From Candidatus Micrarchaeota archaeon (GTDB taxonomy: Archaea; Micrarchaeota; Micrarchaeia; Micrarchaeales; CABMGC01): a DNA stretch of 64,000 nt. The notes beneath the pieces are model-generated. The model was given only the letters and a program-made list of their open reading frames with translations, made no database searches and was not told where the DNA came from. Positions 5,957 through 40,863 of this stretch are shown in pieces; the first letter of the stretch is position 1, and each line of letters starts with the position of its first letter. The position numbers and the translations under genes are program-made. Location of the stretch: positions 337,030 through 401,029 of the forward strand of contig JAGWHD010000001.1 of the NCBI GenBank assembly GCA_028866995.1, given 5' to 3'.

Positions 5957-6087
5957 GCGGATCTTTTGTTTGCTCGTTTTACCTTGGTGTGTAGTATTTT
6001 GCGTTTCGTTTATATATTTTATATCGCAATGTTATTTTGAAAGTGAATCAAATGGCAAAGAAAAAGAAGGCCAAGAGGAAGGCCCAC

Positions 6088-6142
6088 AAAAAAGGGAAAA
6101 AGAAGAGGTAAAGGGATTGGTTTTTGTTTTTTTCTTTTTCCC
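6088..6142 (-). terminator. Hairpin plus oligo-U tract directly after srp54
   Basis: GGGAAAAAGAA (6094-6104) is the exact reverse complement of TTCTTTTTCCC (6132-6142). On the minus strand the hairpin is followed by TTTTTT (6093-6088). It starts 12 nt after the srp54 stop. Confidence 0.5.
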
Positions 6143-6153
6143 CTTTTTCTTTT

Positions 6154-7458
6154 TCACATTCCTGGCATGAACTTCGACATGTTCTTCTTCAGGTCGCGGT
6201 TGTTCTTGAACATCGTAGCGAACTTCTTCATCCTGTTGAAGTCGCTTATGAGCTCCCTCACGTCTTTCTCGGTGGTTCCGCTGCCCTTCGCTATCCTCGC
6301 TATCCTGCTGTGCTCCTTGACAAGCCTGTCGCTGTTCCTCTCCTCCTTCGTCATAGAGCTTATTATCGACCCGTATTTCTTCAGCTTGGTCTCTCCGGTA
6401 TCCAGAACGTCCTTGGGCACGTCGGCCATGCCCATCATCCCCAGTATGCTCTTCATCGGGCCGACGTTCTGCATGGCCTTGAGCTGCTTGTAGAAGGTGT
6501 CGAAGCTGAGGTTGCTGATGTCGGCCTCTTCCTCCTTTATGTTAGCGCTCTTTACAGCTTCCTGCACCTTTAGCACCAAGGACTCTAGGTCTGGCATGCC
6601 GAGCAGCCTTCCGACGAACTTCTTCGAGTCGTAGGGCTCAAGCGCGTTGAGCTTCTCTCCAGTGCCTATGAACGTTATTCTCGTCTTGGACGCGGCCACT
6701 GCGCTGAGGGCGCCTCCTCCCTTCCCCGAACCGTCCAGCTTGGTGACTATGACCCCTGTCAGCTTTATCCTGCTATCGAACTCCGCTGCCTGCTTGCCCG
6801 CTACCTGCCCTATGTCCGCGTTTATGACAAGCATCTTCTCGTCTGGCCTGAACTCGTCGTTTATGAGCTTCAGCTCCTTGGCCAGCTCAGCATCCATCGC
6901 GTTCCTGCCCCCGGAGTCGCATATTATGACCTTGCGGCTCTTCAGCTCGTTGAGCCCTTCCCTTACCAGCTTCTTTACGTCCTTTTCCTCCTTCCTTCCG
7001 AAGAACGAGACATTAGACTGCTTTGCAAGCGTCTCAAGCTGCTCGAAGGCTGCGGGTCTCGAGACGTCGCAGCATATAAGCCCTACGCTGAGCCCCCTGT
7101 CCTGGTAGAACTTGGCGAGTTTCGCCGCGGTGGTGGTCTTACCTGACCCGTATATTCCGACAAGCAGGATCCTCTTCGGCGCTATCTCCGGGGCATAGGA
7201 CTCGCCCATCATCTTTACGAGCTCCTCGTAGACCATGTTGGTGATGTAGTCCTTGGGGGTTATCCCCTGCGGCAGCTTCTCCTTAAGCGCAGCGTCCTCT
7301 ATGCGCTTGGTGAAGGAGAGTACCAGGTTTATGTCCACGTCTGACGATATAAGCGCCTTCTGGAGCTCCTTGGTGAATTCCTTGATGGCCTTGGCGTCTA
7401 TTATCGTGGCTCCGCTAAGCCTTGCTATAGCCTTCCTTAGCCCTTCTCCTAGATCCAT
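6154..7458 (-). CDS. srp54: Signal recognition particle protein SRP54
   Basis: Start taken at MDLGEGLRKAIARLSG (aa 46 of the track ORF). G-domain GIYGSGKTTTAAKLA and TKLDGSGKGGGALS. Met-rich M domain (GMMGMADVP). Confidence 0.95.
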   Translation of the reverse strand: MDLGEGLRKAIARLSGATIIDAKAIKEFTKELQKALISSDVDINLVLSFTKRIEDAALKEKLPQGITPKDYITNMVYEELVKMMGESYAPEIAPKRILLVGIYGSGKTTTAAKLAKFYQDRGLSVGLICCDVSRPAAFEQLETLAKQSNVSFFGRKEEKDVKKLVREGLNELKSRKVIICDSGGRNAMDAELAKELKLINDEFRPDEKMLVINADIGQVAGKQAAEFDSRIKLTGVIVTKLDGSGKGGGALSAVAASKTRITFIGTGEKLNALEPYDSKKFVGRLLGMPDLESLVLKVQEAVKSANIKEEEADISNLSFDTFYKQLKAMQNVGPMKSILGMMGMADVPKDVLDTGETKLKKYGSIISSMTKEERNSDRLVKEHSRIARIAKGSGTTEKDVRELISDFNRMKKFATMFKNNRDLKKNMSKFMPGM

Positions 7459-7548: not shown

Positions 7549-7654
7549 GGGCTCATAGCTCAGCCTGGTCAGAGCGCCGGTCTTATACTTCAAGTTTCAA
7601 TTGAAGCTTGGATACGATAGCCGGATGTCGTGAGTTCAAATCTCACTGGGCCCA
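7549..7654 (+). tRNA. tRNA-Ile, anticodon TAT (UAU), with 31-nt intron at the canonical 37/38 site
   Basis: Acceptor GGGCTCA/TGGGCCC, D-arm GCTC-AGCCTGGTCA-GAGC, anticodon stem CCGGT/GCCGG, T-arm GTGAG-TTCAAAT-CTCAC, discriminator A. Spliced loop is CTTATAA. Mature length is 75 nt. Confidence 0.8.
7588..7618 (+). other. tRNA-Ile intron (bulge-helix-bulge)
   Basis: Central helix CTTA (7582-85)/TACG (7613-16) has one T-C mismatch. The 3-nt bulges are TA|C and AT|A. The inner helix is 6 bp, TTCAAG (7589-94)/CTTGGA (7607-12). Confidence 0.65.
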
Positions 7655-24771: not shown

Positions 24772-25299
24772 TCAGGTATAGACAGTTGAGACTATCAGCA
24801 CCCTCTGCGTCTGCGGCACGTAGTTCTGTATCGTGTAGTTGATCCAGACGTATCCTGAGAACGGTGTGCCTTGCGGGTATTTGGCTACTCCTGATGCGTC
24901 GTAGCAGTACATGTATAGTATGGTGAAGTTGTCGCTGTACATGACCCTGCCACCTGGCTGCTTGCCGCTGGGATAGAAGGATGCCCCGTTGGTCGTGAAT
25001 ATGTTCCCGTACTTAGGACCTGTGCCGGTATCGTTCTGCGTTGTCGAGCATGATGCGCCGTTTATCGTGATCTGCGATCCTATCGCCTGCGACAGCCTGA
25101 CAACAAGGATGCCACCGGTAGTGTTTATGGAATCGTATTCGCACCCGAAGCCTGGATTGGGAGTGCAGTAGGGTGTTGCGAGCACAGTGCTCGTGGTCGC
25201 TATCTTGTATATTATGGCTATCGAGATTAGGATTATGATTATTCCCATGCCGTACGAGGCCATGAAGTCTACTGATGACTGCAGCTTTAGTGGCTTCAT
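24772..25299 (-). CDS. Pilin-like protein with class III (type IV prepilin-like) signal peptide
   Basis: 175 aa. MKPLKLQSSVDFMASYGMGIIIILISIAIIY (charged n-region, Q-x-S-x-D/E, hydrophobic core). Several sequons. Confidence 0.65.
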   Translation of the reverse strand: MKPLKLQSSVDFMASYGMGIIIILISIAIIYKIATTSTVLATPYCTPNPGFGCEYDSINTTGGILVVRLSQAIGSQITINGASCSTTQNDTGTGPKYGNIFTTNGASFYPSGKQPGGRVMYSDNFTILYMYCYDASGVAKYPQGTPFSGYVWINYTIQNYVPQTQRVLIVSTVYT

Positions 25300-25342
25300 G
25301 ATTTAGTTGCGATAACAAGATATTTATGGGTATAATAGACTC

Positions 25343-26212
25343 TCATGAAGACGGGGCAGTGTACCCGGACTGCCAATTGGCTTTCCAGACGACAGGACCC
25401 ACCACATCCCCGTTCCAGTTGTTGCCGGAGTAATCGTTGGCGTTTCCGTTGAGGGGCCACCACGCAGATAGGTGTGCCGTATCTATTGGCGCTGCGCCTA
25501 TGCCTCCCCTATAGATGGCAAGTATCGAAGAGGCGTCTGTCGTGGTGTTGTAGATCTGCACGTTCGCTATCGAACCGTTGAAATATACCGCGTTGGGCTG
25601 GTCTCTGCCTATGTAATATTGTTGGTATAGGGAGCTGCCGATTGTGACGCTGCTCGCCCCCAACGACACGCCGTTTACGTAAGGGGTTACGGTGCCGTTG
25701 CCAGTGTTATAGACAACGGCTATGTAGTACCAGGTACCGGTATTGAAATTGTAATTGTAGTTTAGAAAGCCGTTGTTGTATATCACCCTGAGCACTGTTG
25801 GTGACCCTTCGATTCCGAACCCGTTGCCGTAGGAGCCAGATAGATCCGAATCAATGATGTTGTGGTGGTTTGAATTTAAGTTTGTAGTTTGAAACTGTCT
25901 AGCGTTGATCCATGCCGAGATCGTCCACGAGCCCTCCTTGTTAACGAATGCGGTATTTATGTAGCTGCTTGCGCCGTTGAACATGCCGACATATTTAGGA
26001 ATCAGGTTATTGCACTGTCCAGCAAGGCTGATCTGCGCCGCGGTCCTGACGACCTCGCAGGAACCGGGAGTCGCTGTGGGCTGCAGGTTTGAACCGTTGA
26101 ATATTCCAAGAGAGTACAACGAGACCATTACAATTGCAATGGCTAATATCGCCCAGCCATATGTCATCAGGTACTCCATTGCCGATTGGAGTTTTCTGCT
26201 TGCCCTTTGCAA
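25343..26212 (-). CDS. Pilin-like protein with class III signal peptide and LamG (laminin-G-like) jelly-roll domain
   Basis: 289 aa, TTG start directly after the rps2 stop. MQRASRKLQSAMEYLMTYGWAILAIAIV. LamG pattern WTISAWIN...WYYIAVVYN...YVNGVSL...FNGSIANVQIYN. Confidence 0.7.
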   Translation of the reverse strand: MQRASRKLQSAMEYLMTYGWAILAIAIVMVSLYSLGIFNGSNLQPTATPGSCEVVRTAAQISLAGQCNNLIPKYVGMFNGASSYINTAFVNKEGSWTISAWINARQFQTTNLNSNHHNIIDSDLSGSYGNGFGIEGSPTVLRVIYNNGFLNYNYNFNTGTWYYIAVVYNTGNGTVTPYVNGVSLGASSVTIGSSLYQQYYIGRDQPNAVYFNGSIANVQIYNTTTDASSILAIYRGGIGAAPIDTAHLSAWWPLNGNANDYSGNNWNGDVVGPVVWKANWQSGYTAPSS

Positions 26213-26827
26213 TTACTTCGCCTTGAGCTCCATCTTCGCCTCGAAGTCCTGGAGCTTGTACTCGAATTCCTCGTTTGTCTTTATTATCCCTTTCTCCTTC
26301 TGGAATTCCCTTGCAAGAAGATAGTATATCAGCGCGAGCGCCCTCCTTCCCTTGTTGTTGCAGGGTATGACGATGTCTATGAACTTTATCCAGTTGTCGG
26401 TGTCGCAGAGCGCGAGTATTGGTATGTTTGTCTTGCTCGCCTCCTTCACAGCCTGCCTCTCGTTCCTGGAGTCGCTGATGAGGACTGCGCTGGGTTCGGT
26501 GAAGTCCGGCCTGTTGGGGTTGGTGAAGACACCGGGCATGACCCTGCCGCTTATGAGCTTGGCCTTGGTTATCTCGCAGAACTTCTGCGCTGATGCGATC
26601 GCGTAGATCCTTGAAGCGGTTACGACTATGTCCTTCGGCTCGTACTTGGCGAGCATCTTGGCTGCGAGCCTTATCTTGTTGTCTATCGTGGGAAGGTCGA
26701 GCAGGTACAGCCCGTCCTCCCTTATCTTGTAGATGAACTGCTTCATCCCAGGAGTCTTTATCTTTGTGCCTATGTGTATGCCTGCCTCTAGGTAGACAGC
26801 CTGATCTATCAGCATTTCGTTCGTCAT
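26213..26827 (-). CDS. rps2: 30S ribosomal protein uS2
   Basis: 204 aa. LEAGIHIGTK..., ALCDTD motif region. Collinear with the archaeal S2 pattern. Confidence 0.93.
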   Translation of the reverse strand: MTNEMLIDQAVYLEAGIHIGTKIKTPGMKQFIYKIREDGLYLLDLPTIDNKIRLAAKMLAKYEPKDIVVTASRIYAIASAQKFCEITKAKLISGRVMPGVFTNPNRPDFTEPSAVLISDSRNERQAVKEASKTNIPILALCDTDNWIKFIDIVIPCNNKGRRALALIYYLLAREFQKEKGIIKTNEEFEYKLQDFEAKMELKAK

Positions 26828-26841
26828 TGTTACACCAGATA

Positions 26842-26930
26842 CGGGGTCGCCGAGATTTTCATATGCCTATTTTGAACTCGGGTCTTATGCTCCCTAAGCA
26901 CAGAGCCTAACCAGACTAGCAGACGACCCC
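26842..26930 (-). tRNA. tRNA, Pro-like (anticodon AGG as read), with a 15-nt intron in the T-loop (59/60)
   Basis: Acceptor GGGGTCG/CGACCCC (7 WC bp), D-loop AGTCTGGTTA, anticodon stem TGTGC/GCATA, loop TTAGGGA, variable AGAC, T-stem CCGAG/CTCGG enclosing 22 nt that reduce to TTCAAAT after BHB excision. Confidence 0.7.
26856..26870 (-). other. Non-canonical tRNA intron in the T-loop
   Basis: TTCA (26876-73) pairs with TGAA (26861-58), flanked by 3-nt bulges AAA and AAT on opposite strands. The outer helix is the T-stem. The exact boundary is ambiguous within the A-run. Confidence 0.6.
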
Positions 26931-26976
26931 GCGCTAATTATTGATATCATTAACGTTTTAATCCTTGCCATGGGGC

Positions 26977-27177
26977 TCACTTCCTGCTGTAGTTGACCAC
27001 TTCGTCTATCAGCTCCTTGTGGCTTATGAGCATGCGTCTGCAGCAGTATCTCTTTATCCCCATCTCGTCGAGCACCTTCGCCGGGTCCTCCTTGTTCGTC
27101 TTTGTCCTTGTGGAGAACTCCTCCCACTTGTCCGCAACGACCTGCCCGCACGAGAAACATCTCACTGGTATCATCAT
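26977..27177 (-). CDS. rpoN: RNA polymerase subunit N (Rpo10)
   Basis: 66 aa. [14 protein letters not shown]...[12 protein letters not shown] zinc-binding pattern. Confidence 0.9.
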
Positions 27178-27187
27178 GGCGAAAACC

Positions 27188-27721
27188 TCATCTATACGAC
27201 TTCTGGAACCTTGCCCTTGCCTTAGGCCCCCTGAACTTCTTTGGCTCGACCTTCCTGTAGTCGTCCACTATTAAGCTTCTGTCGTAATCAAGATATACCT
27301 TTCTCAGGCCCTCGTTTGAGAGCGCCAGCGCCTTGGCGAGCGCTGTCCTTGCTGCCTGCGCCTGCCCGTTGACCCCTCCGCCGTGGACGCTTATCTGTAT
27401 GTCCGATTCCTTCACTATCTCGGCTGCTGAGTCAGAGAGATGTACCGGCTCCATTATCAGCTCCCTTATCTCCTTAGGCTTAAGCAGGTCTATGTTCCTC
27501 CCGTTTATCCTTATCCTTCCATTTCCTGACTTGAGAGATGCCCTGGCGACTGCGTTCTTCCTCCTGGCCTTGGACTGCAGGACCTTCTGCTTGGCCTTGG
27601 CTACCTTGCCCTTCCTCTTCGGAGCGGTCTTCTTAGCCTCTCTCTTCTGTACCGCCTTCTGGGGCAGTACAGCCTCGAGCTCCTTGTCAAGATTCTCTAA
27701 TCCCTTGTCTGCCATGATCAT
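27188..27721 (-). CDS. rps9: 30S ribosomal protein uS9 with a ~48-aa basic N-terminal extension
   Basis: 177 aa. Core from [26 protein letters not shown] to C-terminal [12 protein letters not shown] overlaps the rpl13 stop (ATGA). Confidence 0.9.
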
Positions 27722-28161
27722 GCGCCCTTGTATCCCAGGTTCGCCGTAAGCTCCTTGACTGAGATGACATTCTCGTATATCTCGTTCACCTTCTTGGACT
27801 CTATCTTGTGCGCCTTGGCGCCCTGGAAAGATTCCGGAACTGATATGTATACGCGCAATTTCTTGAAGGCCTCCTTGCCCCTGGGCTTCTTGTACGGCAG
27901 CATTCCCCTGACTATCCTCTTGACGAAGAGGTCCGGCCTCCTTGACCAGTACGGCGAGTGCTCAGGATTGGCCTTGTCCTTGAGCTCCACGAGCCTCTTG
28001 TATTTCTCAACTATGTTCCGCTTGTGCCCTGTTATGAGCATGCTCTCTGAGTTGAGTATTATCACGTTGTTCCCCTGGAGCAGCAGCTTCGCCACCTGGC
28101 TCGCAGCCCTTCCGAGGACCTGCTCCTTCCCGTCTATAACATAATCGGTCATGGTCGTCAC
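27718..28161 (-). CDS. rpl13: 50S ribosomal protein uL13
   Basis: 147 aa. VIDGKEQVLGRAASQVAKLLLQG..., MLPYKKPRG. Confidence 0.9.
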   Translation of the reverse strand: MTTMTDYVIDGKEQVLGRAASQVAKLLLQGNNVIILNSESMLITGHKRNIVEKYKRLVELKDKANPEHSPYWSRRPDLFVKRIVRGMLPYKKPRGKEAFKKLRVYISVPESFQGAKAHKIESKKVNEIYENVISVKELTANLGYKGA

Positions 28162-28505
28162 ACTATTATCCTTGCGTCTCCCTTTGCGATCTCTGCTATC
28201 CCCACTATGCTCGATTTGGATTCCTTTAGCTTAGCGAGAGCGCTTTCCGAGTAGTCCACTGCGCTAATCCTTATCTTCTTCGTGAGCGTGCCATCCCCGA
28301 GTACCTTGCCAGGGACTATTATGCTCTCCCCGTCCTTGGACAGCAGGTCGAGCTTGTTGAGGTTGACCTTTATCCTGGACCTCTTCGGCATGCTGGCTAT
28401 GGCCTGCAGCCTGGCTGCCAGCTTGCGCTTCTTCTCGTCCTTGCTCAGCTCCTGTAGGGCGTCAAGCCATGCATTTACCTTGTCGTTCTCTTTCATGCCT
28501 CTCAT
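28158..28505 (-). CDS. rpl18e: 50S ribosomal protein eL18 (L18e)
   Basis: Start taken at MRGMKEND. The track's first 14 aa overlap the tRNA-Leu. RSRIKVNLNKL...VPGKVLGDG pattern. Confidence 0.8.
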   Translation of the reverse strand: MRGMKENDKVNAWLDALQELSKDEKKRKLAARLQAIASMPKRSRIKVNLNKLDLLSKDGESIIVPGKVLGDGTLTKKIRISAVDYSESALAKLKESKSSIVGIAEIAKGDARIIV

Positions 28506-28522
28506 TTTCACGCAACTCTTTA

Positions 28523-28609
28523 TGCGGGGGGTGAGATTTGAACTCACGCAAGCCCTAAAGCTACAGGAACCTCAATCCTGCGCATTTGGCCAAGCTCTGC
28601 CACCCCCGC
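28523..28609 (-). tRNA. tRNA-Leu (anticodon GAG), class II with long variable arm
   Basis: Acceptor GCGGGGG/CCCCCGC, anticodon stem CAGGA/TCCTG, loop TTGAGGT, 17-nt variable region, T-arm GTGAG-TTCAAAT-CTCAC, discriminator A. 87 nt. Confidence 0.88.
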
Positions 28610-28610
28610 T

Positions 28611-39705: not shown

Positions 39706-40863
39706 TCATGGCTGCATCCAGTCTATCTCGTAGTACTCGTTCCTGCTGTTCGCCAGCCTTATCTGCCTTATCCTGTAGTACGTGACTGCGGTTTCCCTGT
39801 CGGCTATGGCCATAACCAGCTCTAGCCTTCTTCTCTTGGCCTCTGCAATCGCGCCTGCGAACTCCCTGCCGCCTATGTACTCGTCCTCGCTGAGCGAGAG
39901 CATCCCGTACCTTGGAGTCGCTGTCTTGGGATTCTCGGCCTCTCCGCCCCTCCTGTGGAAAAGGACATAGTCTATGCCTACCTTCTGTGCGGGGAGGTTG
40001 CCAGGAACAGCGAGTATGAACGTCTTTCTTACTGAATGCGCGACCCTGATTGCCCTGGCCCATTCCGATATGAGGAGCCTTGATTCCTTTGGGAATACGT
40101 GGATCACGTGCTTCGAGTGTATCCTTTCTGTACTTCCTGCGGTCATCGGCCTTGCCCCTGGGAAGTACACCCTGAAATGGGTGCCGAACTTGAAGCCTGT
40201 CTTGATTACATAGCCTCTGTCCCTCCAGTCCCTGTAGACCTCATACAGCCTGTCGAAGTCCCTTCTCCTTGCCCTGGCCGTCCTCCTTATCGATAGAGGC
40301 GTTGTGCTGAGCGGCCTGAGGATGCGCTTGTCCATCAGGTACAGCGTCTCGAATATGTCGAGCTTGTTGAGCTGCCCCCTGTCCTGGGCCTTGTAGGAGC
40401 CATACTGGCCGAGCCATAGGCTTTCGTACAGCTGTTTGCCTTTATCCTTGTCGCCTATTATGGAGACCATGTCGCTGTTGAAGAACGTGCACGTGAGCTT
40501 GTACTTGGGCAGTTTTATCCTTGATCCTGGATACGACTTCACAGGCGTCTTGTTGGCGGTGCTGCGGACCGGGCCTGGCCGGCGTATGACCAGTCCCCTG
40601 TCCCTCCAGTCCCTATATGTCAGGTACTTGGCCATGAACTTGCCGGATTTCGAGAAGCCTGAAGCAAGCTCATCGAAGGGCATGCTCCTGCCGTTGTGGG
40701 TGCATTCCGCATTCCTGACATCCATCAGGTACAGCGCCTCTTCCGGAGAGAGCCTGAGCGACTTCCCCTCGTCGTCCCCGAAGAAGCCCTTGCCAAGTAT
40801 GTCCTTTGTCGACTGATCAACTGCCGTTATCCTGTTTTTGGAGGCGAAATCTATCTGCAGCAA
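39706..40863 (-). CDS. endA: tRNA-splicing endonuclease, long three-unit form
   Basis: 385 aa. Catalytic unit YRDWRDRGYVIKTGFKFGTHFRVY...HSKHVIHV...SVRK (Y/H/K), preceded by a degenerate copy (EEALYLMD...YRDWRDRGLVIRR) and followed by an extra C-terminal-type domain (YGMLSLSEDEYIGG...AIADRETAVTYYRI). Confidence 0.88.
   Translation of the reverse strand: MLQIDFASKNRITAVDQSTKDILGKGFFGDDEGKSLRLSPEEALYLMDVRNAECTHNGRSMPFDELASGFSKSGKFMAKYLTYRDWRDRGLVIRRPGPVRSTANKTPVKSYPGSRIKLPKYKLTCTFFNSDMVSIIGDKDKGKQLYESLWLGQYGSYKAQDRGQLNKLDIFETLYLMDKRILRPLSTTPLSIRRTARARRRDFDRLYEVYRDWRDRGYVIKTGFKFGTHFRVYFPGARPMTAGSTERIHSKHVIHVFPKESRLLISEWARAIRVAHSVRKTFILAVPGNLPAQKVGIDYVLFHRRGGEAENPKTATPRYGMLSLSEDEYIGGREFAGAIAEAKRRRLELVMAIADRETAVTYYRIRQIRLANSRNEYYEIDWMQP

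Follow-up and report, generated by a model that had tools for sequence, protein, structure and literature searches.

Does the spacer between rpoN and rps2 in the analyzed stretch of Candidatus Micrarchaeota DNA (64,000 nt, hereafter the window) hold a working tRNA gene, and how would such a gene read proline codons? The preliminary description of this DNA had placed a minus-strand cloverleaf in the gap, with a Pro-like anticodon AGG and a 15-nt intron in the T-loop, and had allowed for a gene in decay. From the sequence evidence we hold with high confidence that 26842-26930 (-) is a functional, spliced tRNA-Pro(AGG) gene that is not decaying, and we infer its transcription, cleavage, ligation and translational use.

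The tRNA-Pro gene and its orthologues

The gap between the stop of rpoN (26977-27177 (-); Pfam PF01194) and the start of rps2 (26213-26827 (-); Pfam PF00318) runs from 26977 to 26827. Its 149 nt are mostly filled by the pre-tRNA-Pro(AGG) gene, which covers 89 nt (26842-26930 (-)). Read from 26930 to 26842, the minus strand is GGGGTCG TC TGCT AGTCTGGTTA GGCT C TGTGC TTAGGGA GCATA AGAC CCGAG (TTCAAA, ATAGGCATATGAAAA, T) CTCGG CGACCCC G, and all elements of the cloverleaf that had been listed for the gap were present where they had been placed. The 5' exon (26871-26930 (-)) comprises tRNA positions 1-59, that is, the acceptor 5' strand, the D-arm, the anticodon arm, the variable region, the T-stem 5' strand and T-loop positions 54-59 (TTCAAA). 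The 3' exon (26842-26855 (-)) holds U60, the T-stem 3' strand CTCGG, the acceptor 3' strand CGACCCC and the discriminator G73. The mature body has 74 nt and CCA is not encoded.

The acceptor stem GGGGTCG/CGACCCC consists of seven Watson-Crick pairs. The D-arm TGCT/GGCT, with the D-loop AGTCTGGTTA, contains a U10-U25 mismatch and one G-U pair. The anticodon stem TGTGC/GCATA closes the loop TTAGGGA (UUAGGGA in the RNA), in which the anticodon AGG (A34 G35 G36; 26893-26895 (-)) is followed by G37. A 4-nt variable region (AGAC) leads to the T-stem CCGAG/CTCGG, which encloses 22 nt in the unspliced form. The spliced tRNA has U8, A14, G18G19, A21, U33, G53, U54U55C56, A58, C61 and the G15/C48 pair; the exception is the U-U at 10-25.

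Scanning 26780-27000 alone (221 nt) with Rfam RF00005 returned exactly 26842-26930 (-), aligned to model positions 1-71; the score was 34.1 bits, with the gathering score at 29, and E was 8e-6, or roughly 2e-3 when scaled to the whole window. The irregularities in this alignment were 16 nt instead of the expected one in the T-loop (15 extra) and a non-standard 10-25 pair. Our own tRNA-Pro model, run with filters off, gave 86.7 bits. Rfam scans of the whole window at gathering and at permissive thresholds listed the six other tRNAs and missed this one, which the speed filters discarded. Run with or without -i on the unspliced window sequence, ARAGORN likewise listed the other six and missed 26842-26930; it called tRNA-Pro(agg) once 26856-26870 had been deleted. 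The ARAGORN check suggested in the preliminary description thus failed on the genomic sequence and succeeded on the intron-deleted one. Together with the Rfam score and the covariation in orthologous loci reported below, the latter result bears out the reading as a Pro-type tRNA with anticodon AGG. In single-sequence MFE folding, neither the precursor nor the spliced RNA took the cloverleaf form, and these folds were not counted as evidence. The tRNA-Pro model with filters off found no further hidden tRNA in the 64-kb window and no second tRNA-Pro. The gene would be needed to complete the tRNA set of a reduced genome. Because ARAGORN and genome-scale Infernal/Rfam scans miss it, inventories of Micrarchaeota MAGs based on these tools would report in error that a proline tRNA is missing.

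Searching metagenomes with an rps2 alignment gave 80 loci, of which 78 had usable upstream regions. The cloverleaf script detected tRNA-Pro upstream of rps2 in 51 of these 78 regions; a covariance model built from the spliced sequences detected it in 65 loci, in four of which another gene separates the tRNA from rps2. The orthologues come from about 60 Micrarchaeota contigs, and most are directly adjacent to rps2. The order rps9-rpoN-tRNA-rps2 was also found in ten further NCBI and ENA contigs.

ARAGORN called tRNA-Pro(agg) on all 29 distinct spliced orthologues. In their stems 95.9% of cells were paired, a percentage inflated by the script's demand for near-complete pairing, and 12 of the 21 pairs had changed on both sides, which is not inflated in this way. 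Out of 500 column shuffles, none equalled the real alignment in percent paired, both-side changes or covariation score, and slid partners were 38-45% paired. A chance cloverleaf in an intergenic spacer would explain why standard genome-scale scans were silent. However, the local Rfam E-value and the covariation across roughly 60 orthologues already refute this explanation, and its probability is close to nil.

The only systematic non-pair was U10-U25, found in 22 of the 29 distinct sequences, which indicates a trait of the clade and not decay. Weak D-arms were noted earlier in ARMAN-2 tRNA-Pro (PMC3239211).

G35, G36 and G37 were invariant in the 29 distinct sequences. G35 and G36 are the main ProRS determinant. 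Position 73 is G in the window tRNA and G or A in relatives, several of which carry A73, the discriminator of many archaeal tRNA-Pro.

A TATA-like box, ATTAAAA (26956-26962 (-)), lies at -32 to -26 from the mature 5' end. Judging from archaeal BRE/TATA architecture, it is likely the tRNA-Pro promoter. Among 42 distinct upstream sequences, an A/T-rich box occurs at about -34 to -26, with an A+T content of 80-90% or more. The rps2 start follows 14 nt downstream of the tRNA, after GGTG, and so co-transcription of the two genes is possible.

The surrounding cluster (26828-28610 (-)) comprises an rpoD-like ORF, tRNA-Leu(GAG), L18e-like, L13-like and S9-like ORFs, rpoN, tRNA-Pro and rps2, of which rpoN and rps2 were the ones checked with Pfam. 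In many other archaea rpoK and enolase separate rpoN from rps2; both are absent from this position in the window. Directly downstream of rps2 (24772-26212 (-)) are two ORFs with N-termini resembling archaeal class III (type IV pilin-like) signal peptides, e.g., MEYLMTYGWAILAIAIVMVSLY. Elsewhere in the window, 6030-6191 (-) gave a weak match to RNase P RNA (RF01577, E = 0.38; 31 bits, far short of the gathering score, 100), which may stem from chance or from an RNase P RNA that is divergent or reduced.

The 59/60 intron and its probable splicing

The 15-nt intron ATAGGCATATGAAAA (26856-26870 (-)) separates positions 59 and 60. It corresponds to the insertion reported by cmscan, its deletion brings about the ARAGORN call, its geometry is shared by 30 distinct orthologous introns, and one relative is intronless. 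T-loop positions 54-57 (TTCA, 26873-26876 (-)) pair with TGAA of the intron (26858-26861 (-)), and the resulting 4-bp UUCA/UGAA helix is flanked on opposite strands by the 3-nt bulges AAA (26872-26870) and AAU (AAT in the DNA, 26857-26855). This is the motif known as bulge-helix-bulge (BHB). Cutting after the second nucleotide of each bulge yields UUCAAAU, and each of the six other tRNAs in the window indeed has TTCAAAT as its T-loop, as had been noted before. The 5-bp T-stem acts as the outer helix. The inner helix has two A-U pairs that add no stability (0-10 bp in relatives), so that the motif is effectively relaxed, like that of the ARMAN-2 tRNA-Cys intron. The BHB conformation of the T-arm was calculated at -4.6 to -5.6 kcal/mol, slightly above the local MFE of -6.4.

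The claim that the same cutting rule reproduces the 37/38 site of the tRNA-Ile at 7549 was recomputed and gave the same site; the geometry at 59/60 equals that of canonical 37/38 introns on the anticodon stem. The intron of this tRNA-Ile(UAU) (7549-7654 (+)) is 31 nt long and sits at 37/38; in its BHB the inner helix has 6 bp and the central helix is interrupted by one U-C mismatch. An isoleucine tRNA with UAU is an ARMAN trait (Fujishima 2011, PMC3239211).

From the orthologous loci, 30 distinct 59/60 introns of 12-33 nt were recovered. In all 30, T-loop positions 54-57 pair four out of four with the intron nucleotides ending two bases before the 3' splice site, the central helix is flanked by 3-nt bulges AAN and NNU on opposite strands, and cutting after the second bulge nucleotide leaves UUCAAAU. 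The inner helices range from 0 to 10 bp and are unrelated in sequence between lineages (TA/TA, GGC/GCC, TAAGC/GCTTA, TGGGC/GCCCA, ACA/TGT and others). The window's rps2 product is 100% identical to a protein that a Candidatus Micrarchaeota MAG encodes on a contig of 726,952 bp. A second Micrarchaeota MAG (L001) has exons identical to those of the window and a different intron of 17 nt. The relatives carry an intron at 59/60 only, introns at 53/54 and 59/60, an intron at 53/54 only or, in one copy, no intron. That copy (L021, 244-316) is the only intronless one of AGG type; its T-loop is exactly TTCAAAT and its Rfam score is 35.7 bits. The conserved geometry and this intronless relative uphold the splice sites that had been proposed for 26856-26870.

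Several side observations concern the same loci. The L021 copy has an acceptor U2-C71 mismatch and lies 416 nt from rps2. Two T-arm introns (53/54 and 59/60) occur in L003-L015, L019, L028, L033, L036 and L082-L091, all of them AGG with the loop UUAGGGG or UUAGGGA. In distant lineages (L058-L061, L063, L066, L070 and L071) the syntenic tRNA-Pro is GGG and lies about 130 nt upstream of rps2; these genes have a non-canonical anticodon-loop intron (about 32/33) and a 53/54 intron, or in L071 a 59/60 intron. The tRNA-Pro(GGG) homologue of L065, starting at about 160, has an apparent T-loop insert of about 190 nt, far longer than the other introns here. Spacers between tRNA and rps2 in AGG-type loci are mostly 13-47 nt with a 59/60 intron and 135-416 nt without. 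This association may reflect phylogeny only; the GGG-type L058-L066 break the pattern.

The 15 nt might instead stay in the RNA, either as part of a working, enlarged 22-nt T-loop or because the locus, instead of encoding a decoding tRNA, serves the rps2 mRNA as a tRNA-like leader or processing element. A T-loop of 22 nt would disrupt the elbow formed by G18G19 and U55C56, which is established tRNA structure. The short distance of 14 nt to rps2, and the tendency of the 59/60 insert to accompany short tRNA-rps2 spacing in AGG-type loci, fit retention; however, the GGG-type L058-L066 are short-spaced without a 59/60 intron. Furthermore, exact BHB geometry is kept while the sequence and length of the insert vary, which is the pattern of an endonuclease substrate and not of a structural loop, and the T-loop is exactly TTCAAAT in relatives without the insert. 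A homologue of EndA is also encoded in the window, and the ARMAN-2 enzyme has proven 59/60 activity (PMC3239211). We therefore consider retention of the 15 nt highly unlikely and favor splicing. A related candidate, an A/T-rich intron doubling as rps2 promoter, was suggested by the long spacers of AGG-type loci that lack the 59/60 intron, and was rejected as unnecessary: the conserved 3' end UGAA-AA is explained by the BHB, and the short-spaced GGG-type loci L058-L066 do without the 59/60 intron.

The EndA gene (39706-40863 (-)) encodes a tRNA splicing endonuclease of the three-unit (epsilon2) type with 385 aa (Pfam PF01974 and PF02778). By phmmer it matched ARMAN-2 EndA (PDB 4FZ2) over its full length with E = 2.1e-141, residues 9-385 aligning on 11-387. 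The ARMAN-2 epsilon2 enzyme cleaves the 13-nt 59/60 intron of pre-tRNA-Cys in vitro (PMC3239211; PMC3488258), and the lysine K161 of its ARMAN-2-specific loop (ASL) is required to cut relaxed T-loop introns (Hirata et al., PMC3488258). This lysine, in the motif GTYK, is conserved in the window EndA as GSYK. By analogy, the window EndA presumably removes the 59/60 intron of tRNA-Pro.

A pathway can be proposed on this basis. The tRNA would have a TATA-like promoter of its own, about 30 nt upstream, and might be transcribed together with rps2. In the precursor, T-loop 54-57 (UUCA) would pair with the UGAA that lies close to the intron's 3' end, and this helix would stack on the 5-bp T-stem to form a BHB with a 4-bp central helix and the bulges AAA and AAU opposite each other; with an inner helix of two A-U pairs the motif would be effectively of the relaxed type. 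The epsilon2 EndA would cleave each bulge behind its second nucleotide, a ligase would join A59 to U60 to give the T-loop UUCAAAU, and CCA would be added afterwards. The mature tRNA, with A34 as inosine or unmodified, would then read the proline codon CCU. The roughly 60 loci, with 30 introns, varied T-arm intron states and one intronless copy, offer a natural series for the gain and loss of T-arm introns and for the substrate rules of epsilon2 endonucleases.

Anticodon A34 and proline codon usage

A34 was found in every Micrarchaeota-like locus (rps2 60-100% identical to that of the window), and GGG occurred only in more distant loci. Since a single transition would restore G34, this invariance argues for selection. 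Codon usage was examined in the same loci. In the window, CCU/(CCU+CCC) is 0.52 compared with 0.32 for the corresponding fraction in six further four-fold boxes (Fisher p = 9e-11, odds ratio 2.24), and the CCU share is the highest U fraction among all NNY pairs. The CCU shift has an odds ratio of 2.2 in AGG-type loci, against 1.18 (not significant) in those of GGG type, in a comparison of related, non-independent genes. Proline codon usage has moved towards CCU along with A34 in the Micrarchaeota-like clade. CCC is still common, and so some reader of CCC is required, be it I34, unmodified A34 or a UGG tRNA.

These data also bear on whether the locus is a decaying tRNA pseudogene, in which the change of G34 to A, U10-U25 and the T-loop insertion would be damage in a disused gene. 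Such a view could appeal to the near absence of A34 in archaea (PMC8007984; bioRxiv 10.64898/2026.05.15.725136), to the D-stem mismatch flagged by cmscan and to the modest Rfam score of 34.1 bits. However, all three "defects" are shared by loci with rps2 only 60-87% identical, accompanied by compensatory stem changes, a conserved intron structure and a conserved promoter box. The CCU-shifted codon usage is specific to A34 lineages, and the 64-kb window has no other tRNA-Pro. Decay is thus extremely unlikely. The caveat in the preliminary description is refuted, as U10-U25 is conserved in most of the distinct sequences and no AGG-type locus departs from A34. In our judgment, A34 is very probably both conserved and in use in the rps2-linked tRNA-Pro of the Micrarchaeota-like clade.

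According to recent reviews, archaea lack both ANN anticodons and A34 deaminases (PMC8007984; bioRxiv 10.64898/2026.05.15.725136), the latter source giving 3 of 10,517 archaeal tRNAs. The clade-wide A34 contradicts the textbook absence of ANN anticodons, and it is the part that specialists would notice, because these reviews still deny both the anticodons and the deaminases. The A34 tRNA-Pro genes would have escaped tRNA censuses partly through T-loop introns that hide them from routine scanners. For Micrarchaeota or DPANN, Fujishima 2011 was the only paper that our literature search found on A34 or a wobble deaminase. The invariant A34 and the CCU shift extend the little-noticed 2011 observation on ARMAN-4/5 to Micrarchaeota.

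A possible, though doubtful, explanation is that the clade-wide A34 is deaminated to I34 by an unrecognized archaeal wobble A-to-I deaminase. The H/CAE...PCxxC motif of CDA-fold deaminases was absent from the 64-kb window and from 253 kb of related loci, a result that is uninformative as the window is less than 10% of the genome. If A34 is deaminated, this would be the first I34 in Archaea; if not, it would be a natural case of clade-wide decoding with unmodified A34. The choice between wobble inosine and decoding by unmodified A34 in archaea thereby becomes a testable question.

Comparison with known systems

A tRNA-Pro(AGG) with a T-loop intron is not new in kind. The preliminary description overestimated the novelty of the 59/60 intron and of A34. 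A paper from 2011 already described 59/60 introns in tRNA-Pro and tRNA-Cys of Micrarchaeum, the endonuclease that cleaves them and the ARMAN tRNA-Pro(AGG) with A34 (Fujishima et al. 2011, NAR 39:9695, PMC3239211).

The gene-encoded anticodon and the G34-less decoding strategy are shared with eukaryotic tRNA-Pro(AGG), which is deaminated to IGG by ADAT2/3, whereas no A34 deaminase is known in archaea (PMC8007984). BHB introns outside 37/38 combined with a broad-specificity endonuclease are also found in Thermoproteales and other archaea (PMC3239211, PMC4033280, PMC5829648). Their EndA differs from that of the window in its (alpha-beta)2 architecture, and broad specificity was acquired convergently (PMC3488258).

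An archaeal tRNA-Pro with A34 is known from ARMAN-4 and ARMAN-5 (Parvarchaeota), where tRNA-Pro(AGG) and tRNA-Leu(AAG) reportedly replace the G34 forms (PMC3239211). These organisms belong to another DPANN lineage and have a 177-aa endonuclease and few introns; their tRNA-Leu is AAG, while that of the window is GAG.

The short 59/60 intron and the relaxed BHB resemble those of ARMAN-2 pre-tRNA-Cys(GCA) (PMC3239211 Fig. 1B, 4B; PMC3488258). This is a different tRNA, cleaved experimentally by epsilon2 EndA in a manner dependent on the ARMAN-2-specific loop.

Candidatus Micrarchaeum acidiphilum ARMAN-2 has a pre-tRNA-Pro that is interrupted at both 53/54 and 59/60 (PMC3239211, Fig. 1C) and shares with the window gene the phylum, the isoacceptor family, a 59/60 BHB on the T-stem and the endonuclease type. 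The ARMAN-2 gene has two introns and is labelled GGG (PMC3239211), whereas the window gene has the 59/60 intron alone and is AGG. The GGG label also differs from the two-intron relatives found here, all of which are AGG.
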